DNA of 64,000 bases, taken from NCBI RefSeq assembly GCF_057098645.1, contig NZ_CM169472.1. One strand, 5' to 3'. Positions 1 through 32,145 of the stretch are shown here, piece after piece (the stretch's first letter is position 1; each line of letters starts with the position of its first letter). The position numbers were made by a program, and so were the translations under genes. The notes beneath the pieces were generated by a model that was given only the letters and a program-made list of their open reading frames with translations, was not told the DNA's origin and did not search any database.

Positions 1-1
1 C

Positions 2-289
2 TACTGGACGCACCCAGAATACGCCAACCTGTTTGGGGATAGAGAGGCAATTTCAGCTGATGAGTTCAGATCTTTCTGCAAGCAGCATGGCATTGAATCA
101 TCAATTGTTGAAATGGAAAACGACAACAATCAAACGGTAATTGACGCGTATTTTGAAGATGGGAATCCAAACATCAGTGGATGGGAGCCAAGCATGCCAG
201 ATGGAAAAGGATGGTTTGTCGGTTCGATTCACGATACAGAAGACGGTCCGATCTGCGTTTGGTTCAGGAATGTAGATAAGGCCGCATAG
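2..289 (+). CDS. Phage early-region protein, C-terminal fragment (5' end outside window)
   Basis: Open frame from the window edge to TAG at 287..289 (about 95 codons), same strand as the downstream phage operon. No start codon in window. Confidence 0.35.
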   Translation, partial: YWTHPEYANLFGDREAISADEFRSFCKQHGIESSIVEMENDNNQTVIDAYFEDGNPNISGWEPSMPDGKGWFVGSIHDTEDGPICVWFRNVDKAA

Positions 290-352
290 TCGGCCTTTAT
301 TTTTGGCATAAACAAGAGAATAAACACTGCACTGAATTATTTGAGGTGAGAT

Positions 353-823
353 ATGACAAAATCATGGAGCGTACCTTTTCCTGAATCAGAAACTGAACAT
401 GATGGAATGCCTGTTTTCTGGAGATTCCAAGCGACAGTTGAAGAAGATGGAATCAAAATATTCGCACTTCAATATATAGCTTTTCATCAGACAGAGCATT
501 ATGCATGGTTGGTTCCTTCGCATTGGATTGTTAATTTTAAACCAGCACCAAATCAGTGGTTACAGGAATGGAAACAAAGGAGAAATAGATATGCAATTAA
601 GAAAGTAGCAAAAAATGCAGAAAGATCTTTTGCATTCCCGACGAAGAAACTTGCCATTGAAAGTTTATTGCGCCGGAAGAAATACCATTTGATGAGAATC
701 AAACAAGATTTGGCTGTTGTATCAACTCTTGTTGATGGGATGAAGAATATTGATACATCAACACCAGATATTGAATATAACTTTGGACACAACCAAGAAA
801 CAGAAAATTGGGTGTTTTATTAG
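353..823 (+). CDS. Hypothetical phage protein (156 aa), function unknown
   Basis: ORF with a GAGGTGA Shine-Dalgarno-like sequence just upstream of the ATG. AT-rich codon usage typical of phage accessory genes. No family recognised. Confidence 0.55.
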   Translation: MTKSWSVPFPESETEHDGMPVFWRFQATVEEDGIKIFALQYIAFHQTEHYAWLVPSHWIVNFKPAPNQWLQEWKQRRNRYAIKKVAKNAERSFAFPTKKLAIESLLRRKKYHLMRIKQDLAVVSTLVDGMKNIDTSTPDIEYNFGHNQETENWVFY

Positions 824-973
824 TACGAATAAGCACTGTATATTCATTCCAACGAGTGAATACACGGAGCAATGTCGCTCGTAACTAAACAGGAGCCGAC
901 TTGTTCTGATTATTGGAAATCTTCTTTGCCATCCAATGTGAGGGCGTTTTTTTATCTATGAGGATATGAATAG

Positions 974-1342
974 ATGTCAAACATCAAAAAATACATCATT
1001 GATTACGACTGGAAAGCATCAATAGAAATTGAAATCGACCATGACGTAATGACAGAGGAAAAACTTCACCAGATTAATAATTTCTGGTCAGACTCTGAAT
1101 ACCGACTCAATAAACACGGCGCTGTATTAAATGCTGTATTAATCATGCTGGCGCAACATGCTCTGCTTATAGCAATTTCGAAAGACTTAAATGCATATGG
1201 TGTTGTTTGTGAGTTCGACTGGGATGATGGAAATGGTCAGAAAGGATGGCCTCCAATGGATGGTAGTGAAGGAATAAGAATTACCGATATCGATACATCA
1301 GGAATATTTGATTCAGATGATATGACTATCAAGGCCGCCTGA
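974..1342 (+). CDS. ea10: Lambda Ea10-like protein
   Basis: 122-aa translation matches my recollection of lambda Ea10 and sits immediately upstream of cIII, as in lambda. Confidence 0.7.
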   Translation: MSNIKKYIIDYDWKASIEIEIDHDVMTEEKLHQINNFWSDSEYRLNKHGAVLNAVLIMLAQHALLIAISKDLNAYGVVCEFDWDDGNGQKGWPPMDGSEGIRITDIDTSGIFDSDDMTIKAA

Positions 1343-1414
1343 GTGCGGTTTTACCGCATACCAATAACGCTTCACTCGAGGCGTTTTTCGTTATGTATAA
1401 ATAAGGAGCACACC

Positions 1415-1579
1415 ATGCAATATGCCATTGCAGGGTGGCCTGTTGCTGGCTGCCCTTCCGAATCTTTACTTGAACGAATCACCCGTAAATTACGTGACGG
1501 ATGGAAACGACTTATCGACATACTTAATCAGCCAGGAGTCCCCAAAAATGGATCAAATACTTATGGCTATCCAGACTAA
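1415..1579 (+). CDS. cIII: CIII (FtsH inhibitor, stabilises CII)
   Basis: 54-aa translation [54 protein letters not shown], recognised as lambda CIII. Internal ATG at 1415 with AAGGAG RBS upstream. Confidence 0.8.
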   Translation: MQYAIAGWPVAGCPSESLLERITRKLRDGWKRLIDILNQPGVPKNGSNTYGYPD

Positions 1580-1691
1580 ATTCACTATCGCCACTTTTAT
1601 TGGCGATGAAAAGATGTTTCGTGAGGCCGTCGACGCTTATAAAAAATGGATATTAATACTGAAACTGAGATCAGGCAAAAGCATTCACTAA
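1548..1691 (+). CDS. kil: Kil (host-killing / cell division inhibitor)
   Basis: 47-aa translation [47 protein letters not shown], lambda Kil-like. Overlaps the cIII 3' end in another frame as in lambda. Confidence 0.75.
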
Positions 1692-1766
1692 TCCCCTTTC
1701 CTGTTTTCCTAATCAGCCTGGCATTTCGCGGGCGATATTTTCACAGCCATTTTCAGGAGTTCAGCC

Positions 1767-2063
1767 ATGAACGCTTATTACATTCAGGATCGTCTTGAGG
1801 CTCAGAGTTGGGCGCGTCACTACCAGCAGATCGCCCGTGAAGAGAAAGAGGCAGAACTGGCAGACGACATGGAAAAAGGCCTGCCCCAGCACCTGTTTGA
1901 ATCGCTATGCATCGATCATTTGCAACGCCACGGGGCCAGCAAAAAAGCCATTACCCGTGCGTTTGATGACGATGTTGAGTTTCAGGAGCGCATGGCAGAA
2001 CACATCCGGTACATGGTTGAAACCATTGCTCACCACCAGGTTGATATTGATTCAGAGGTATAA
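1767..2063 (+). CDS. gam: Gam (RecBCD inhibitor), 98-aa form
   Basis: Translation [39 protein letters not shown]... recognised as lambda Gam. Directly upstream of bet. Confidence 0.9.
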
Positions 2064-2068
2064 AACGG

Positions 2069-2854
2069 ATGAGTACAGCACTCGCAACGCTGGCTGGGAA
2101 GCTGGCTGAACGTGTCGGCATGGATTCTGTCGACCCACAGGAACTGATCACCACTCTTCGCCAGACGGCATTTAAAGGTGATGCCAGCGATGCGCAGTTC
2201 ATCGCATTGTTGATCGTCGCCAACCAGTACGGCCTTAATCCGTGGACGAAAGAAATTTACGCCTTCCCTGATAAGCAGAACGGCATCGTTCCGGTGGTGG
2301 GCGTTGATGGCTGGTCCCGCATCATCAATGAAAACCAGCAGTTTGATGGCATGGACTTTGAGCAGGACAATGAATCATGTACATGCAGGATTTACCGCAA
2401 GGACCGTAATCATCCGATCTGCGTTACCGAATGGATGGATGAATGCCGCCGCGAACCATTCAAAACCCGCGAAGGCAGAGAAATCACCGGACCGTGGCAG
2501 TCGCATCCCAAACGGATGTTACGGCATAAATCCATGATTCAGTGTGCCCGTCTCGCCTTCGGATTTGCTGGTATCTATGACAAGGATGAAGCCGAGCGCA
2601 TTGTCGAAAATACTGCATACACTGCAGAACGTCAGCTGGAACGCGACATCACTCCGGTTAACGATGAAACCATGCAGGAGATTAACACTCTGCTAATCGC
2701 CCTGGATAAAACATGGGATGACGACTTATTGCCGCTCTGTTCCCAGATATTTCGCCGCGACATTCGCGCATCGTCAGAACTGACACAGGCCGAAGCAGTG
2801 AAAGCTCTTGGATTCCTGAAACAGAAAGCCACTGAGCAGAAGGTGGCAGCATGA
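2069..2854 (+). CDS. bet: Bet (Red beta single-strand annealing protein)
   Basis: 261-aa translation [48 protein letters not shown]... recognised as lambda Bet. Confidence 0.92.
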
Positions 2855-3531
2855 CACCGGACATTATCCTGCAGCGTACCGGGATCGACGTGAGAGCTGT
2901 CGAACAGGGGGATGATGCATGGCACAAATTACGGCTCGGCGTCATCACCGCTTCAGAAGTTCACAACGTGATAGCAAAGCCCCGCTCAGGAAAGAAGTGG
3001 CCTGACATGAAAATGTCCTACTTCCACACCCTGCTGGCTGAGGTTTGCACCGGTGTGGCTCCGGAAGTTAATGCTAAGGCGCTGGCCTGGGGAAAACAGT
3101 ACGAGAACGACGCCAGAACCCTGTTTGAATTCACTTCCGGCGTGAATGTTACTGAATCCCCGATCATCTATCGCGACGAAAGTATGCGTACCGCCTGCTC
3201 TCCGGATGGATTATGCAGTGACGGCAACGGCCTTGAGCTGAAATGTCCGTTTACCTCCCGGGATTTCATGAAATTCCGGCTCGGTGGTTTCGAGGCCATA
3301 AAATCAGCTTACATGGCCCAGGTGCAATTCAGCATGTGGGTGACTCGAAAAGATGCCTGGTACTTTGCCAACTATGACCCGCGCATGAAGCGTGAAGGCC
3401 TGCATTATGTCGTGGTCGAGCGGGATGAAAAATACATGGCTGGTTTTGACGAGATGGTGCCGGAGTTCATCGAAAAAATGGACGAGGCACTGGCTGAAAT
3501 TGGTTTTGTATTTGGGGAGCAATGGCGATGA
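2851..3531 (+). CDS. exo: Exo (Red alpha 5'-3' exonuclease)
   Basis: 226-aa translation [40 protein letters not shown]... recognised as lambda Exo. Start overlaps the bet stop (ATGA). Confidence 0.92.
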
Positions 3532-3710
3532 AGCATCCTCACGATAATATCCGGGTAGGCGCGATCACTTTCGTCTACTCCGTTACAAAGCGAGGCTGGG
3601 TATTTCCCGGCCTTTCTGTTATCCGAAATCCGCTGAAAGCCCAGCGGCTGGCTGAGGAGATAAATAATAAACGAGGGGCTGTATGCACAAAGCATCTCCT
3701 GTTGAGTTAA
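3522..3710 (+). CDS. Small phage ORF (62 aa), lambda orf61/orf63/orf60a-region equivalent
   Basis: Start overlaps the exo 3' end. Position matches the small ORFs downstream of exo in lambda. No function known. Confidence 0.45.
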
Positions 3711-3874
3711 GAACGAGCATTGAGATTGCACATAGCCTTGCTCAAATTGGAGTCAGGTTTGTGCCAATACCAGTAGAAACAGACGAAGAATTTCATACGT
3801 TAGCCGCATCCCTTTCACAAAAGCTGGAAATGATGGTGGCGAAAGCAGAAGCAGATGAGAGAGACCAGGTATGA
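3683..3874 (+). CDS. Small phage ORF (63 aa)
   Basis: Overlaps the preceding ORF, which is typical phage gene packing. Acidic C-terminus. Confidence 0.45.
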   Translation: MHKASPVELRTSIEIAHSLAQIGVRFVPIPVETDEEFHTLAASLSQKLEMMVAKAEADERDQV

Positions 3875-3954
3875 CAACCACTGAATGCATTTTTCTGGCA
3901 GCGGGCTTCATATTCTGTGTGCTTATGCTTGCCGACATGGGACTTGTTCAATGA
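3871..3954 (+). CDS. Putative 27-aa hydrophobic micropeptide
   Basis: ATG at 3871 overlaps the upstream stop (ATGA). Translation MTTTECIFLAAGFIFCVLMLADMGLVQ is one predicted transmembrane helix. Its stop overlaps the next ATG (3951). Confidence 0.3.
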   Translation: MTTTECIFLAAGFIFCVLMLADMGLVQ

Positions 3955-4166
3955 CACCTCAGCAAGAAAACGCCCTTCGCAGTATTGCCCGTCAGGCTAA
4001 TTCTGAAATCAAAAAAGCCAGACAGCAGTTTCCGGATAAAAACGTCGATGACATTTGCCGTAGCGTACTGAAGAAGCACCGCGAAACGGTAACGCTGATG
4101 GGATTCACACCGACTCACTTAAGTCTGGCAATCGGTATGTTAAACGGCGTCTTTAAGGAACGGTGA
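3951..4166 (+). CDS. Small phage ORF (71 aa)
   Basis: Internal ATG of ORF 3885..4166, chosen because it is translationally coupled to the upstream micropeptide. Translation MTPQQENALRSIARQANSEIKKARQQF... Confidence 0.4.
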   Translation: MTPQQENALRSIARQANSEIKKARQQFPDKNVDDICRSVLKKHRETVTLMGFTPTHLSLAIGMLNGVFKER

Positions 4167-4264
4167 ACATGAAAAGCAAAATCATCAGGGAGCTACAGGC
4201 TCCTTTTTTATTATTCGCATTCACCCTCAAGCGTATTAACCAACAATTCAGGGATTAATGAAAG

Positions 4265-4486
4265 ATGGCAGATATCATTGATTCAGCATCAGAAATTGAA
4301 GAATTACAGCGCAATACAGCAATAAAAATGCGTCGCCTGAACTACCAGACTGTATCCGCAACTCATTGTTGTGAGTGTGGCGATCCGATAGATGAACGAA
4401 GACGCCTGGCAGTTCAGGGTTGTCGGACTTGTGCAAGTTGCCAGGAGGATCTGGAGCTTATCAGTAAACAGAGAGGTTCGAAGTGA
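4265..4486 (+). CDS. TraR/DksA-family C4 zinc-finger protein (lambda orf73-like)
   Basis: 73 aa with CxxC...CxxC (CCECGDPIDERRRLAVQGCRTCASC), the DksA/TraR zinc-ribbon signature. Confidence 0.7.
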   Translation: MADIIDSASEIEELQRNTAIKMRRLNYQTVSATHCCECGDPIDERRRLAVQGCRTCASCQEDLELISKQRGSK

Positions 4487-5169
4487 GCGAAATTAATTAT
4501 CAGGCACTGCGTGAAAAGGCAGAGAAAGCAACTAAAGGAAGCTACATCGTAGGGCATACATCTGTTAACCAGCACGGCAATTTAACAGGAGTTTTTGTTT
4601 GCCAAAAATGGAAAGGAGAACCCGGTGGTGTGATTGCGGAATGTCATGTTAACTGCCTGGTTGAAACAGATGTTCAGGCTTATGCAAACGCTGAATTTAT
4701 TGCTGCTTTTAATCCAAATGTTGCGCTGGCACTACTGGATGAACGGGAAAGAAACCAGCAATACATCAAACGCCGCGACCAGGAGAACGAGGAGATTGCG
4801 CTTACGGTTGGGAAGCTGCGCGTTGAGCTGGAAGCCGCAGAGAAGCGCAACGCAAAATTACAAAGCGAGAATGCATACATCCGCAACCGGTACAAAGAAC
4901 TGGACCTGTTAATCGGGAAAAACATTCTGGTCATGCAGGCTGCCATTATCGAATGGCAATCGACTGGCGACGCTAAAAGCGGACTGGCATGGATTTATAA
5001 CACACTGTTTGGCCCAGGCGAATTGCCGGACGAATCTGAGAAAGATGCTCAGGCCTACTTTAATCGCAAATATGCACCGATTGACGAAAAGCTTATGGCG
5101 CTTCACAAGTGGTTTTGGGAACAAAGTGAAGCCGAGCGCGCCGCTGGCATTTGCATCAAAGGAGAGTGA
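4483..5169 (+). CDS. Ea22-like coiled-coil accessory protein (228 aa)
   Basis: Central heptad-rich segment (ALTVGKLRVELEAAEKRNAKLQSENAYIRNRYKELD). Position between exo and xis as for lambda ea22. Function unknown. Confidence 0.5.
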   Translation: MSEINYQALREKAEKATKGSYIVGHTSVNQHGNLTGVFVCQKWKGEPGGVIAECHVNCLVETDVQAYANAEFIAAFNPNVALALLDERERNQQYIKRRDQENEEIALTVGKLRVELEAAEKRNAKLQSENAYIRNRYKELDLLIGKNILVMQAAIIEWQSTGDAKSGLAWIYNTLFGPGELPDESEKDAQAYFNRKYAPIDEKLMALHKWFWEQSEAERAAGICIKGE

Positions 5170-5170
5170 T

Positions 5171-5674
5171 ATGACCACTATTACCAAAGAGCGACTACTG
5201 ACAATCAAGCAGTGGCGCGAAACATACGGACCTGGTAGCAACGTTGTACTGCCAGCAGAAGAAGCGGAAGAACTGGCACGAATTGCTCTGGCATCGCTGG
5301 AAGCAAAACCAATAGCGTGGGAATGCGGCGAAAACATAATCCTGTTTAATCCTGACACAGTTGAAGCATACGCAAAACGTGCGGAGATATCACCTAAACC
5401 ACTATATGCCGCGCCGCCAGTTCCGGTAACTCCGGATGGTTGGATAAGCTGTAGTGAGCAAATGCCAGAAATGGGAGAGCGACAATGCTATGTGTTAGCG
5501 GCTGACTTTAAAAACAACTACCCGCCAAACATCCCCAACACTCAGGTCGGCGTATATGGCGACTGGTTTAATGATGGCAATCCCACTTGGGATGACGGTG
5601 ATGGCGAAGACCTGTATCTCAAAGAGGTAACCCACTGGATGCCGCTACCGGAACCGCCGCAGGAGGTGAAGTGA
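5171..5674 (+). CDS. DUF551-like phage protein (167 aa)
   Basis: Internal ATG at 5171 immediately after the Ea22-like stop, preceded by AAAGGAGAG. C-terminal W/D/G-rich region (GDWFNDGNPTWDDGDGEDLYLKEVTHWMPLP) resembles DUF551 proteins common in prophage accessory regions. Confidence 0.55.
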   Translation: MTTITKERLLTIKQWRETYGPGSNVVLPAEEAEELARIALASLEAKPIAWECGENIILFNPDTVEAYAKRAEISPKPLYAAPPVPVTPDGWISCSEQMPEMGERQCYVLAADFKNNYPPNIPNTQVGVYGDWFNDGNPTWDDGDGEDLYLKEVTHWMPLPEPPQEVK

Positions 5675-5757
5675 TGAATTGGCCTGAAGCATTCACCGCT
5701 GTAGGAGTTGCAATAGCGGTGGCATTTATTCTGTATTCGCTTTTCCGCTGGGGATAA
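5674..5757 (+). CDS. Putative 27-aa hydrophobic micropeptide
   Basis: ATG overlaps the upstream TGA (5672..5674), with AGGAGGTGA RBS. Translation MNWPEAFTAVGVAIAVAFILYSLFRWG is one predicted transmembrane helix. Confidence 0.3.
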   Translation: MNWPEAFTAVGVAIAVAFILYSLFRWG

Positions 5758-5761
5758 AGGA

Positions 5762-6004
5762 ATGTTCGCTCTGATTCAACGTGGTCAGATATACACCGAT
5801 AGCGCCGGCTATCCGATAAAAATTCTTCGCTGCATAAACAACACTGTGTTGTACAGAAGAATGGATGGGCGAACACAGTCGGTAAAAATAAACGATTTTA
5901 ATGAACTGTTTGAACGGATTGATCACCAGGAATACCGACAAATTCTGGCAGAAACAGAGCAGGAAGCTCATCTGAAAAAATTACGAGCCATGAAAAGGAA
6001 GTAA
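5762..6004 (+). CDS. Hypothetical phage protein (80 aa)
   Basis: ORF begins 5 nt after the micropeptide stop, same operon orientation. No family recognised. Confidence 0.45.
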   Translation: MFALIQRGQIYTDSAGYPIKILRCINNTVLYRRMDGRTQSVKINDFNELFERIDHQEYRQILAETEQEAHLKKLRAMKRK

Positions 6005-6007
6005 AGA

Positions 6008-6142
6008 ATGAATAAAGCATTTGAACGATGGGTCCACCAGCGTTACGGCAATCGCTATGACCTGACGCGAGGTGGTGACGGTTTCTACTGTCGTGAAGTT
6101 GTGAAGCGAATGTTTGAAGTGTGGTGCCACTGCCGTGGATGA
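6008..6142 (+). CDS. Putative 44-aa Cys/His-rich small protein
   Basis: ATG 4 nt after the preceding stop. Translation MNKAFERWVHQRYGNRYDLTRGGDGFYCREVVKRMFEVWCHCRG. Not in the supplied ORF track, which has a 60-aa cut-off. Confidence 0.3.
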   Translation: MNKAFERWVHQRYGNRYDLTRGGDGFYCREVVKRMFEVWCHCRG

Positions 6143-6160
6143 AAATTTTATGAGGTTGGC

Positions 6161-6415
6161 ATGCAGACAATCATCTATCAGATAACCCCCAGCAAATGGT
6201 GTACGGAGAGAGTCCTCATTGCATCAACAGGGCTAAAGCCTGGCACCATCGAGCGAGCCAGAAGAAAGTCATGGATGCAGGGAAAAGAATACCGCCATTA
6301 CGCTGTAGAAGGTGATCCGGGGCATTACAGTGAATGCCTGTACAACATCGAAGAAATTATGCGATGGATCGAAAACCAGAAACAACCAGGTGCCAAAAAT
6401 GCAAGTTCCGGTTAA
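6161..6415 (+). CDS. xis: Excisionase-like DNA-binding protein
   Basis: 84-aa basic protein immediately upstream of int, as expected for a phage Xis. Assignment is by position and composition, not by strong sequence recognition. Confidence 0.5.
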   Translation: MQTIIYQITPSKWCTERVLIASTGLKPGTIERARRKSWMQGKEYRHYAVEGDPGHYSECLYNIEEIMRWIENQKQPGAKNASSG

Positions 6416-6448
6416 CCTGTTAATGCTCCTGGACGTCTGGGAGGTTTT

Positions 6449-7735
6449 ATGAGTAACGCATCATACCCGACAGGCGTTGAAAACCATGGAGGATCACTCC
6501 GTATATGGTTTCACTATAATGGCAAACGTGTCAGAGAAAACCTCGGTGTTCCTGACACCGCCAAAAACCGGAAGATCGCTGGTGAGCTTCGCACTTCTGT
6601 TTGTTTTGCAATCAGAATGGGGAGTTTCGACTACGCCGCGCAGTTCCCTAATTCCCCTAACCTGAAACACTTTGGTCTGGGAAAAAGAGAGATAACCGTT
6701 AAGGCACTTTCGGAAAAATGGTTGGACCTTAAGAAAATTGAGATTTGTACGAATGCACTTAACCGTTACCAGTCAGTAATTAAAAACATGTTACCAATGT
6801 TAGGTGAAAAAAAACTGGTTTCATCCATAACAAAAGAGGATTTACTTTTCGTAAGGAGAGATTTGTTGACCGGTTACCAAAAGCTTTCTAATGGAAAGAC
6901 TTCTTCCATAAAAGGGCGCTCAGTGGTCACGGTAAACTACTATATGACAACCATAGCTGGAATGTTTCAATTTGCAACAGATAATGGTTATACCTCAGGA
7001 AACCCATTTAACGGTCTGGCTCCCTTAAAAAAGTCCAAGGTAAAACCAGATCCTCTCACCCGTGACGAATTTATTCGTTTTATTGAGGCTTGCCGTCATC
7101 AACAAACAAAAAACCTGTGGATTCTCGCTGTATACACGGGTATTCGTCACGGGGAGTTGGTATCGCTGGCATGGGAAGATATAGACCTTAAAGCAAGGAC
7201 TATAACCATCCGTAGAAATTATACAAAACTTGGCGAATTCACTCCACCAAAAACCGATGCTGGCACCGGAAGGACAATTCATCTGGTTCAACCAGCTATT
7301 GATGCTCTTAAAAGCCAAGCGGAAATGACCATGCTTGGAAAGCAACATTCTGTAGAGGTAAAGCAGAGGGAATATGGGAGAACTGCTGTGCATAAATGTA
7401 CTTTTGTTTTTAGCCCTCAGGTAATAAAACAGCAGCTGTTGTCTGGACCTCACTACAAAGTTGACTCCATCAGGGAGTCATGGACAAGTATCTTAAAACG
7501 CGCAGGTCTGAGACACAGAAAATCGTACCAATCCAGGCATACTTATGCATGCTGGTCACTTGCCGCTGGAGCTAATCCTAGTTTTATCGCAAGCCAGATG
7601 GGCCACACAAACGCACAAATGGTATTCAATGTTTACGGAGCATGGATGAAAGACAACAATCACGAACAGATAGAACTCCTTAACAAAAGACTATCTGAAA
7701 GTGTCCCATGTATGCCCCATAAGAAAGTGGGGTAA
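6449..7735 (+). CDS. int: Phage integrase, tyrosine recombinase family
   Basis: 428 aa. C-terminal catalytic region with conserved Arg/His and terminal Tyr (RHTYACW...GHTNAQMVFNVYGAW). Last phage gene before the host junction. Confidence 0.9.
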   Translation: MSNASYPTGVENHGGSLRIWFHYNGKRVRENLGVPDTAKNRKIAGELRTSVCFAIRMGSFDYAAQFPNSPNLKHFGLGKREITVKALSEKWLDLKKIEICTNALNRYQSVIKNMLPMLGEKKLVSSITKEDLLFVRRDLLTGYQKLSNGKTSSIKGRSVVTVNYYMTTIAGMFQFATDNGYTSGNPFNGLAPLKKSKVKPDPLTRDEFIRFIEACRHQQTKNLWILAVYTGIRHGELVSLAWEDIDLKARTITIRRNYTKLGEFTPPKTDAGTGRTIHLVQPAIDALKSQAEMTMLGKQHSVEVKQREYGRTAVHKCTFVFSPQVIKQQLLSGPHYKVDSIRESWTSILKRAGLRHRKSYQSRHTYACWSLAAGANPSFIASQMGHTNAQMVFNVYGAWMKDNNHEQIELLNKRLSESVPCMPHKKVG

Positions 7736-7773
7736 AATAAAAACTTGTAAAATCAGTTAGTTTACCCTTAATC

Positions 7774-8373
7774 CCTGTCACGTTACGCGCGTGGCAGAGG
7801 CGTTACGGATTGCTGAAACCGCAACGGACAGACGGCGGTCATCGGCTGTTCAACGATGCCGATATTGACCGGATCCGCGAGATCAAACGCTGGATCGACA
7901 ACGGCGTGCAGGTCAGCAAAGTTAAAATGCTGCTCAGTAATGAAAATGTTGATGTGCAGAACGGCTGGCGCGATCAGCAAGAAACATTACTGACTTACCT
8001 GCAAAGCGGCAATCTACATAGCCTGCGAACGTGGATCAAAGAGCGCGGTCAGGATTACCCCGCCCAGACACTCACCACACATCTGTTTATTCCTCTGCGC
8101 CGACGGCTTCAGTGCCAACAACCGACTCTCCAGGCGCTGCTGGCGATCCTCGACGGCGTACTGATCAACTACATCGCCATTTGTCTGGCTTCGGCACGTA
8201 AAAAACAGGGTAAAGATGCGCTGGTGGTTGGCTGGAATATTCAGGATACCACCCGTCTGTGGCTGGAGGGCTGGATTGCCAGTCAACAAGGATGGCGCAT
8301 TGATGTCCTCGCCCACTCGCTCAATCAACTACGCCCTGAACTATTCGAAGGCCGTACATTGCTGGTGCGGTGA
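7774..8373 (+). pseudogene. mlrA: mlrA (yehV) MerR-family curli regulator, 3' fragment lacking N-terminal HTH codons
   Basis: In-frame translation from about 7774 reads PVTLRAWQRRYGLLKPQRTDGGHRLFNDADIDRIREIKRW..., which matches MlrA from roughly residue 17 onward. Upstream sequence is phage (int). The ORF-track start at 7810 is a TTG. Confidence 0.8.
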
Positions 8374-8511: not shown

Positions 8512-8619
8512 ATGCGCATAGCTAAAATTGGGGTCATCGCCCTGTTCCTGTTTATGGCGTTAGGCGGAATTGGTGGCGTCATGCTCGCAGGTTATACCTT
8601 TATTTTGCGTGCTGGCTAA
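8512..8619 (+). CDS. yohO: Small membrane protein YohO (35 aa)
   Basis: ATG preceded by AAGGAG. Translation [35 protein letters not shown] is a single transmembrane helix. Conserved position between mlrA and yehW. Confidence 0.6.
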
Positions 8620-21837: not shown

Positions 21838-21921
21838 ATGAAAATTATACTCTGGGCTGTATTGATTATTTTCCTGATTGGGCTACTGGTGGTGACTGGC
21901 GTATTTAAGATGATATTTTAA
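21838..21921 (+). CDS. yohP: Small membrane protein YohP (27 aa)
   Basis: ATG preceded by AAAGGAACG. Translation MKIILWAVLIIFLIGLLVVTGVFKMIF is a single transmembrane helix. Confidence 0.55.
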   Translation: MKIILWAVLIIFLIGLLVVTGVFKMIF

Positions 21922-30624: not shown

Positions 30625-32145
30625 TTAAAGGTGCAAAGACGCAAGACGCAGAATTTCGTTTTGCGTTGTTGTTTTTGTATCGACAATTCCGGAAACGAGA
30701 CCATTGCTCATGACCAGAATACGGTCTGTTATCCCTAACAACTCAGGCATTTCAGAGGAGATAATAATAATCCCCTTGCCTTTCTTCGCCAGTTCGGCAA
30801 TTAACTGATAGATCTCAAACTTCGCCCCGACATCAATACCGCGCGTCGGTTCATCGAGCATTAATATTTCTGGTTGCGTTAGTAGCCAGCGACCAATAAT
30901 CACCTTTTGCTGATTACCACCGGAGAGCGAACCAATTTGCGTCCGATGACCCGGCGTTTTTACCCGCATCGAATCAATCACCCACTGGGTATCGCTTTTC
31001 ATCCGCGAGTTATCCAGTAAACCAACTTTATTTTTGTAGTTGCGAATATTGGAAATTAACGAGTTAAAACCGATATCCAGATAGGCATAAATTCCCGTTG
31101 AGCGGCGCTCCTCAGTTACCAGTGCAAATCCGTGGTTTATGGCTTCGTTGGCATTATGGTTATTGATCTTTTTGCCGTGCAACGTAATTGTGCCAGCCGA
31201 TTTCTCGCGAATACCAAATAACGTCTCAACAATATCGGTACGTTTCGCCCCCACCAGACCGGCAATACCGAGGATCTCCCCTTTATGCAGATCAAACGAG
31301 ACATCGCGAATCGACGGCTGGCGCAGTGACGTCAGGTTACGCACCTCGAGGATGACTTCGCCCGGCTTGTTTTCTTTGTCAGGAAAACGCTGGTTAAGAG
31401 AACGCCCAACCATCATGGCGATAATCTTGTCCATCGTCAGCCCTGCCAGCGGTTCGGTGGCGATCCACTGACCGTCGCGCAATACGGTAACTTCATCACA
31501 TAACTGGAAGATTTCTTCCATTTTATGCGAGATATAAACAATACCGCAGCCGCGCTCTTTTAATTTACGAATAATAGTGAACAGATGATTGACCTCTTTT
31601 TCGGTTAACGAAGAAGTCGGTTCATCCATAATCACAATTTTCGCGTTATAGGAAAACGCTTTGGCGATTTCGATCATCTGCATTTGCGAAACAGATAATG
31701 TGCCGACGCGCGCACGCGGATCGATATCAATATCCAGTTCATCAAAAATCGCTTTGGTTTCGCGGTACATTTTGTCCTGGTCGACAAACATGCCTTTGGT
31801 GGGGTATCGCCCAAGCCACATGTTGTCCATCACCGAACGTTGTAATACCAGGTTTAACTCCTGGTGTACCATCGAAATACCATTTTCCAGTGCTTCTTTG
31901 GCCGAATGGAAATCGATCTCTTTACCCTGGAATAAAATGGTGCCGGAGTCTTTTTGATAAATACCAAACAGGCATTTTAATAATGTTGATTTTCCTGCGC
32001 CGTTTTCCCCCATTAATGCATGGATAGAATGTGGCCGGACTTTTAAATTAACGTTATCAAGTGCCTTAACACCAGGAAAAGACTTGTTGATACCGCTCAT
32101 TTCCAACAAGTATTCCCCGGAAGACGGAGTCGTTGAGCTGACCAT
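30625..32145 (-). CDS. mglA: Galactose/methyl-galactoside ABC transporter ATP-binding protein
   Basis: Duplicated ABC ATPase with Walker [13 protein letters not shown] and two ABC signatures. Confidence 0.92.

Follow-up and report, generated by a model that had tools for sequence, protein, structure and literature searches.

The question raised by this locus is whether a very short open reading frame (ORF) in the leftward early operon of a lambdoid prophage, absent from the annotations that we inspected, is a gene in its own right. The DNA analysed here (64,000 nucleotides (nt) of contig NZ_CM169472.1, RefSeq assembly GCF_057098645.1; hereafter the window) carries a 27-codon ORF between orf63 and a gene for a 71-amino-acid (aa) protein of the orf61 family. 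An original prediction, made from the DNA letters, had described it as a membrane micropeptide in a chain of four translationally coupled small ORFs after exo. We consider it fairly probable that positions 3871-3954 form a genuine gene for a protein, carried by the early leftward (pL) transcript; it would supply a 27-residue hydrophobic-helix peptide and at the same time act as a gate on translation. This reading is supported by the conservation of the ORF, by codon-level constraint, by the architecture of its two junctions, by its relationship to an insertion and by the misframing of orf61. The features on which it turns are as follows (start of the 71-aa gene as given by the Prokaryotic Genome Annotation Pipeline, PGAP).

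3871..3954, plus strand: the 27-codon ORF, encoding MTTTECIFLAAGFIFCVLMLADMGLVQ, a candidate single-span membrane peptide and the focus of the finding.
3871..3876, plus strand: left copy of the direct repeat ATGACA, which holds the start of the 27-codon ORF and forms ATGA with the upstream stop.
3951..3956, plus strand: right copy of the direct repeat ATGACA, which holds the stop of the 27-codon ORF and the start of the 71-aa gene.
3951..4166, plus strand: orf61-family gene, 71 aa, predicted three helices (PHROG 303; PGAP start; homologs).
3885..3950, plus strand: 5' extension included in the 93-aa 'Orf61' of the Phi24B/933W type, probably non-coding in that frame, judging from the substitution pattern.

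At both ends of the 27-codon ORF, the stop/start overlap expected of coupled genes is conserved. The ATGA at 3871 was kept in 225 of 225 sequences, and the junction at 3951 was ATGA in 209 of these and GTGA in the other 16. Furthermore, both junctions were retained behind nine distinct upstream sequence contexts, one of which brings in a different gene.

For the analysis of variation, 289 related loci were pooled, 277 of which cover the 27-codon ORF, and 275 were used. The ORF was intact, with no insertion or deletion (indel) in its 80 nt, in 275 of the 277 loci, and the two exceptions were assemblies riddled with indels. The original prediction had made conservation of the frame in related phages a point to be checked, and apart from these two assemblies no frame-disrupting variation was seen. 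The identical peptide is encoded by 239 of the 275 sequences; by tblastn, a full-length frame was found in 175 of 176 phage records, with the identical peptide in 138. In 92 haplotypes, the 77 nt outside both ATGA overlaps have accumulated 25 mutations, which are distributed over the three sense frames in the following manner.

27-codon frame: 14 synonymous, 10 non-synonymous, 1 stop (Q27stop).
93-aa frame: 6 synonymous, 18 non-synonymous, 1 stop-related (a polymorphic stop).
Third sense frame: 5 synonymous, 19 non-synonymous, 1 stop-related.

Among the variants present in at least 5 sequences, 8 of 10 are synonymous in the 27-codon frame, including the commonest one, at 3942, and the recurrent replacements are conservative (T3A, F8L, A10V). 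A permutation test, in which the type of each mutation was kept and its position was shuffled, gave the following P values for an excess of synonymous changes.

27-codon frame, all variants: P 0.005.
27-codon frame, variants in at least 3 sequences: P 0.002.
27-codon frame, variants in at least 5 sequences: P 0.00075.
Other two sense frames of the 27-codon segment: P >0.67.
71-aa gene: P <=0.0005.
orf73: P <1e-4.
orf60a: P 0.024-0.0016.
31-codon ORF at 4163-4258: P 0.41.
orf63: P about 0.2-0.28.

Since orf60a, the 71-aa gene and orf73 are positive and the 31-codon ORF and orf63 are negative, a positive result in this block is not trivial, yet the test is not fully sensitive. Many of the sequences come from draft prophage contigs, in which singletons may be sequencing errors; the synonymous excess grows stronger once singletons are dropped. 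Our results show that the segment has both an open frame and a synonymous excess specific to one sense frame, the two properties looked for in a protein-coding gene.

The same substitutions bear on the possibility that the segment encodes the N-terminus of a longer Orf61, either the 93-aa form starting at 3885 (MHFSGSGLHILCAYACRHGTCS) or the 61-aa form of lambda. Many records annotate the long form, PHROG 303 is built on it, and the 93-aa protein has been modelled in the literature (PMC8614690). However, in the 93-aa frame the counts are reversed, each of the 10 common variants changes the residue (P = 1.0), and the codon at 3882, just before the ATG at 3885, is a stop (with T) in 130 of the 275 sequences and a sense codon in the others; annotated lengths therefore vary (71, 93, 95 and others up to 102 aa). 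All of the distant homologs begin at the methionine of the 71-aa form, which is residue 23 of the 93-aa form, and the 71-aa form by itself is predicted to fold confidently (AlphaFold2 predicted local distance difference test score 88.9, three helices). Furthermore, the 61-aa product of lambda ends at a frameshift specific to lambda, and the annotated ORF was insoluble when overexpressed. A longer Orf61 as the source of the conservation is thus very improbable.

Constraint could also be imposed from the other strand, where a 61-codon ORF (3753-3938, minus strand) is open with an ATG in 244 of 244 sequences of the orf63 context and has a synonymous excess of its own in 3874-3950 (P 0.047, 0.031). 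Opposite a real gene, an antisense frame tends to be kept open, which counts against an antisense gene, and the third codon positions are common to this frame and the 27-codon ORF, so that the excess in one is expected to appear in the other. No excess was observed over the remaining two-thirds of the antisense ORF, 3753-3870 (P 0.52, 0.19), and it excludes the commonest variant, at 3942, which is synonymous in the sense ORF. Where a methyltransferase gene takes the place of orf63 (see below), the C-terminal two-thirds of the antisense ORF are replaced and in some loci its ATG is changed to ATA, with the sense peptide unchanged. Such a gene would also need transcription against pL. We regard this explanation as extremely improbable.

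If the segment were a non-coding spacer and were kept as a cis element, for instance an internal promoter (p2) or an RNA structure, its open frame would be incidental. In line with this, PGAP leaves the segment intergenic, and BPROM placed p2 inside the ORF, with -35 ATGCAT, -10 TCATATTCT and a score of 0.59 (PMC4195576). However, the three-base periodicity of the variation fits an ORF rather than a promoter footprint, and our promoter scan with a threshold of 9 of 12 found no site on the plus strand of the segment. Shuffled versions of the RNA fold more stably than the RNA itself (z +1.74), and the total lack of indels in 80 nt of 275 sequences also argues against a spacer, which we consider quite improbable.

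Another explanation is that the 27 codons merely carry ribosomes from the upstream gene to the start of the 71-aa gene, as an upstream ORF would, the peptide itself being irrelevant and degraded. Both ends of the ORF are strongly conserved ATGA overlaps, and the ribosome-binding site (RBS) of the 71-aa gene is weak, presumably because the ancestral GGAGG now serves the small ORF; the ORF moreover looks like a recent insertion, and distant relatives do without one. A relay of this kind requires an open frame but no given sequence, yet the changes are mainly synonymous, with the great majority of sequences encoding one and the same peptide, and the replacements are mostly conservative. In addition, its product is a clean hydrophobic helix and not a random sequence. 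We therefore regard a pure relay as unlikely, and a dual role, as peptide and as relay, as likely.

The origin of the ORF can be seen at the junctions of the mosaic. At 22 loci, a gene for a Dam-type methyltransferase is found in place of orf63, and 3871 is the exact point at which homology to the window sets in; the stop of the methyltransferase gene again makes ATGA with the start of the 27-codon ORF. In these loci GGAGG lies 4 nt upstream of the ORF (or GGGAGG at 6 nt, counting the G of the preceding codon), and in the orf63 context there is merely a weak purine-rich tract. In an exhaustive hidden Markov model search, 60 proteins related to the 71-aa protein were found; those at a distance, with 32-65% identity, are 69-75 aa long and align from residue 1. 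In the contigs of these distant relatives no small ORF intervenes: their gene follows a methyltransferase-type gene, from one family or another, and is coupled to it directly by the junction GGAGGCYGC-ATGA(CA). When the junctions are aligned, the module of Escherichia coli has exactly 80 extra nt between two copies of ATGACA. Because the extra nt are bounded by this repeat and the distant homologs lack the small ORF, the 27-codon ORF looks like an 80-nt insertion into an existing stop/start overlap, which captured the RBS and the start of the 71-aa gene and would have regenerated an ATGA for the latter.

The sequence GGAGGCYGC-ATGA is kept before the 71-aa family at the 3' end of three methyltransferase families, namely Dam-like, N6_N4-like and MT-A70 (for example in locus L029 at 1400-1425, L290 at 400-425 and L292 at 1485-1505). 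As the junction is common to the three families, about the last 13 nt of the upstream gene travel with the downstream module. In one E. coli genome, the last 31 nt of the 27-codon ORF stand alone, joined to a truncated gene for the antiterminator Q (L301, 601-631). This 31-nt match (H180) was considered as a clue to the origin of the insert and was rejected, since it is a prophage deletion junction inside the small ORF.

We take the 71-aa gene to be the true orf61-family gene. PGAP names its product 'cell division protein ZapA', and a comparison with homeodomains has been published. The match to Pfam PF05164 had an independent E-value of 0.018, 0 of 21 family members reached E<=0.001, and NCBIfam gave no match for the protein. 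Its best Foldseek match in the PDB (E 1.4) was not ZapA, and the Pitx2 homeodomain ranked 9 (E 4.4). With no significant PDB match, there is no support for the ZapA name or for the homeodomain proposal. A 428-aa member of the cluster (P0006) is an unrelated glycosyltransferase, apparently a clustering quirk. By eye, no slippery heptamer was seen near the junction of the peptide and the 71-aa gene, where a fusion by programmed frameshifting was considered.

The orf61 genes of lambda (NP_040613), Phi24B (vb_24B_7c) and 933W (L0070) share with the 27-codon ORF the same DNA, operon, early expression and published mutants. The lambda orf61 encloses the 27-codon ORF wholly, and the 93-aa form of the Shiga-toxin (Stx) phages encloses all but 14 nt of it. 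The 27-codon ORF, however, uses another reading frame, and would be a separate upstream gene with a product of its own; of the annotated gene, no more than the final 71 codons look like a real orf61-family protein. Two positions have to be considered here.

3922, plus strand: site of the published lambda 'orf61' frameshift, position 1 of codon 18 of the 27-codon ORF (primer mapping).
4010, plus strand: A-run with one extra A in lambda, which frameshifts the 71-aa gene (comparison with lambda).

In lambda the 27-codon ORF is intact, and the annotated 61-aa orf61 is a three-frame chimera. In lambda coordinates the 27-codon ORF starts at 31008, the annotated orf61 at 31024 and the 71-aa gene at 30928. 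It starts in the last codons of orf63, passes out of frame through the small ORF, follows the frame of the 71-aa gene for 26 codons and ends past the extra A, which is specific to lambda and is flagged as a frameshift by PGAP. According to Donaldson (PMC8614690), lambda Orf61 seems to be truncated and unfolded, and the placement of residues 1-23 in the 93-aa model is poor. Overexpressed annotated orf61 ORFs gave insoluble aggregates.

The published lambda 'orf61' frameshift, in which C was deleted in CTTCATATTCTGTGTG[C]TTATG (primer in Table 1 of PMC4195576), delayed phage development after induction (PMC4195576). By mapping of the primer, the deleted C is 3922 of the window and 30957 of lambda. 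In the mutant the peptide becomes MTTTECIFLAAGFIFCV followed by 25 unrelated residues, with no stop at the ATGA. Later published deletions of orf61 replaced the whole annotated ORF, so that the 27-codon ORF was lost as well. The mutants thus hit the 27-codon ORF and the coupling, and therefore the orf61 phenotypes are not assignable to Orf61 alone. A further-reaching version, which we put forward tentatively as a possibility, is that the phenotypes of lambda orf61 are determined by the 27-codon peptide instead of 'Orf61', the peptide being the product of a young gene that arose from the 80-nt insertion and later came under purifying selection for a membrane peptide; the 71-aa gene of lambda would on this view be a frameshifted pseudogene.

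As for the product, the 27-codon ORF is, from its sequence, a probable small membrane-peptide gene. The peptide has a grand average of hydropathy of 1.62 and a 19-residue Kyte-Doolittle maximum of 2.33, the third-highest hydrophobicity of the 263 ORFs of 20-40 aa with ATG starts in the six frames of the window. Its hydrophobic core of about 21 residues (C6-V26) has the length required to span a bilayer. Flanking positive charges, as in the positive-inside rule, were looked for in the peptide and were not found. Lys and Arg are both absent from it, and with two acidic residues, E5 and D22, its net charge is -2. It resembles single-span membrane proteins from short ORFs of E. coli and its phages, such as AcrZ, MgtS, KdpF and CydX, in its small size, its one hydrophobic helix and the fact that such genes are missed by annotation pipelines; it differs in having neither family similarity (NCBIfam, PHROG, PADLOC) nor flanking positive charges. 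Like the type I toxins Ibs, TisB, Hok and DinQ, it is very short and strongly hydrophobic and could perturb the membrane, and it is carried by a prophage in an operon with host-killing functions. However, the 27-codon ORF is coupled within a long operon instead of forming a stand-alone locus with an antisense RNA, and it has no homology to these toxins; neither a toxin-family match (NCBIfam, PHROGs, PADLOC) nor a promoter-like site on the minus strand adjoining the ORF was found.

Other short hydrophobic ORFs occur in the window. The most hydrophobic one with an ATG start lies at 21838-21921 (MKIILWAVLIIFLIGLLVVTGVFKMIF, 27 aa, Kyte-Doolittle maximum 2.96). A second one on the plus strand, at 5671-5757 (MNWPEAFTAVGVAIAVAFILYSLFRWG), has a GTG start that overlaps the stop of a 221-aa ORF (5009-5674); it was found by tblastn in 90 phage records at 48-100% identity and thus belongs to a more diverse family of small hydrophobic peptides in lambdoid phages. 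Just outside the prophage, beside a host membrane-permease-like gene on the opposite strand, is a 35-aa hydrophobic ORF (8512-8619), which we take to resemble the host small membrane protein YohO.

For the 27-codon ORF we propose the following mechanism. Ribosomes ending the upstream gene, either orf63 or the Dam-type methyltransferase gene, would stop at the TGA within ATGA and begin again at the ATG that overlaps it; where the methyltransferase gene lies upstream, GGAGG could also recruit ribosomes directly. Those ending the peptide would stop in the second ATGA and restart on the 71-aa gene, so that the ORF may be both the source of a peptide and a gate on the translation of the next gene. 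The peptide may insert into the inner membrane early in infection or induction, and some of the mild pro-lytic, host-survival phenotype credited to orf61 may be due to it. As in operons with termination-reinitiation at ATGA, the ORF has ATGA at both ends and the downstream gene has a weak RBS; it differs in that the gene seems to have been inserted into an existing ATGA junction, which was thereby duplicated.

Several points weigh against this reading. The selection signal is shallow, as it comes from 25 mutations in sequences that are at least 94% identical and are confined to Escherichia; distant-mode blastn and tblastn against all phages found no divergent copies of the module below about 94% DNA identity or 92.6% peptide identity. 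Proteins P0104 and P0110, at first sight '51-52% identical' homologs, proved to be the same module in assemblies full of indels. A scan of species-representative genomes gave 5 loci, all from Escherichia save two metagenome-assembled bins that are probably contaminated, and the module is essentially restricted to Escherichia. Q27stop, found in two sequences, shifts the stop 2 nt upstream of the ATGA. The distant 71-aa homologs manage without the small ORF, the co-phased antisense frame gives a weaker but similar score, and a weak promoter has been predicted inside the ORF. The lack of Lys and Arg together with the net negative charge is unusual for a membrane anchor. Since the published frameshift also breaks the annotated 61-aa frame, its phenotype is not specific to the peptide. 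Lambda profiling by Liu et al. (2013), in the account given by Donaldson (PMC8614690), lists only a 7-aa and a 31-aa extra ORF here; elsewhere in the searched literature its extra ORFs are not named.

The original prediction also held that the ORF falls below the usual annotation cut-offs, and indeed 3871-3954 is in none of the annotations that we inspected (lambda NC_001416, phage 434, Stx phages and RefSeq genomes, including one that is 100% identical). These annotations disagree on the start of the next gene: PGAP uses 3951 (71 aa) and leaves 3871-3954 intergenic, others use 3885 (93 aa), and that of lambda, with 61 aa, begins 16 nt before 3871. An ORF that lies within an annotated gene but in another frame is easily overlooked. 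The 84-nt segment occurs at 4,252 places in 3,141 of 5,426 complete E. coli genomes, and among the 30 matches listed only the two flanking genes are annotated around it. Some GenBank submissions list the exact peptide as a 'hypothetical protein', and UniProt has it as A0A0A2SGE8, found on 981 contigs. Its sequence was in no paper of the searched literature, and it had no significant match in NCBIfam, PHROGs or PADLOC.

Positions 1-7,800 of the window, on the plus strand, read as the leftward early operon of a lambdoid prophage, with gam, bet, exo, the small ORFs and the integrase gene. Besides the features given above, it includes the following.

2069-2854, plus strand: bet.
2851..3531, plus strand: exo (lambda exonuclease), 226 aa, upstream anchor of the chain (exonuclease annotation in matching records).
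3528..3710, plus strand: orf60a (DUF1317), 60 aa, or 62 aa from the in-frame ATG at 3522 (PHROG 1998, E 1e-33).
3683..3874, plus strand: orf63 (DUF1382), 63 aa (PHROG 292, E 1e-35; PDB 8DSB, E 8e-33).
4163..4258, plus strand: 31-codon ORF, joined by GTGA to the end of the 71-aa gene (some phage records annotate it).
4265..4486, plus strand: orf73 (TraR/DksA-type zinc finger), 73 codons, downstream end of the small-gene block (TIGR02419, E 8e-15; PHROG 54).
6449-7735, plus strand: integrase gene.

A 901-nt query (3400-4300 of the window, the four ORFs with their flanks) was compared with phage records and with the 5,426 complete E. coli genomes; it matched 233 phage records and 3,672 of the genomes, nearly all at 95-99% identity. 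The block is 97% identical to lambda in DNA and has the gene order of the lambda reference annotation, and its products match PHROG 1998, 292, 303 and 54 at E 1e-26 to 1e-36. The order orf60a-orf63-orf61-orf73-ea22 has been described for the exo-xis block (PMC8614690). By position, directly after gam-bet-exo on the pL strand, and by order as well as by homology, the locus is the conserved exo-xis block of lambdoid phages. Its genes have been the subject of work by the Wegrzyn and Donaldson groups, and their deletion gives modest shifts in lysogenisation and induction (PMC8614690, PMC6213356).

The chain of four ORFs (3522-3710, 3683-3874, 3871-3954 and 3951-4166) is present on the plus strand with the overlaps that had been predicted, 28 nt between the first two and ATGA at 3871-3874 and 3951-3954. 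The start proposed for the first ORF, 3522, has to be revised: the ATGA with the stop of exo is at 3528, which is used by the lambda reference and PGAP. Although the ATGs at 3522 and 3528 are both invariant in 225 sequences, as is the ATGA joining the exo stop to the orf60a start, 3528 is the more likely start. Nor is the chain limited to four genes, since overlaps of the same kind occur between bet and exo (ATGA at 2851), the 71-aa gene and the 31-codon ORF (GTGA at 4163) and orf73 and ea22 (GTGA at 4483). The suggestion of 'co-translated small effectors' was drawn from the ATGA overlaps, and three of these ORFs, far from being unknown effectors, are the named genes orf60a, orf63 and the orf61 homolog, all with published phenotypes. 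The small-gene chain itself is thus not new; in the searched literature, neither the 27-codon gene nor the re-reading of orf61 is described.

In the region of orf63 at 3711-3870, 13 synonymous polymorphisms were observed against 10.9 expected, despite its solved nuclear magnetic resonance structure (8DSB), and the last codons ahead of the ATGA vary (...DQV, ...DPA, ...ELA); the absence of a synonymous excess and these variable codons suggest relaxed or diversifying evolution. In a RefSeq genome with the identical 901-nt segment, orf73 is called an incomplete pseudogene by PGAP (L002, 1166-1384); in the window it has 73 intact codons and overlaps an ea22-like start. The 31-codon ORF, coupled by GTGA in the window and by ATGA in lambda, contains a terminator-like hairpin (4187-4205) followed by a T-run, which is probably the terminator predicted between orf61 and orf73 (PMC4195576). 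By its length and position, this ORF is probably the lambda 'orf2313' of ribosome profiling. It is similar to the 27-codon ORF as a nearby short ORF of the same chain with ATGA or GTGA coupling, but it shows no amino-acid constraint and overlaps the hairpin, whereas in the 27-codon ORF constraint is seen and RNA structure is not.

Lambda serves as the reference for temperate phages. Its exo-xis region, one of the last parts of it to be still poorly understood, has an influence on the choice between lysis and lysogeny and on the induction of prophages, those of the Shiga-toxin phages included. If our reading is true, a gene is missing from the maps of lambda and of thousands of E. coli prophages, one that is present in more than half of the complete E. 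coli genomes. 'orf61' would then be misframed at its 5' end, with the lambda form as a three-frame chimera, and structural models and expression of the 61-aa and 93-aa forms would have used the wrong protein, which may explain the reported insolubility. The published phenotypes of orf61 frameshifts and deletions would not be attributable to Orf61, because these mutations also destroy the 27-codon ORF and the coupling. The case would also be a clear example of a short gene inserted in a stop/start overlap.

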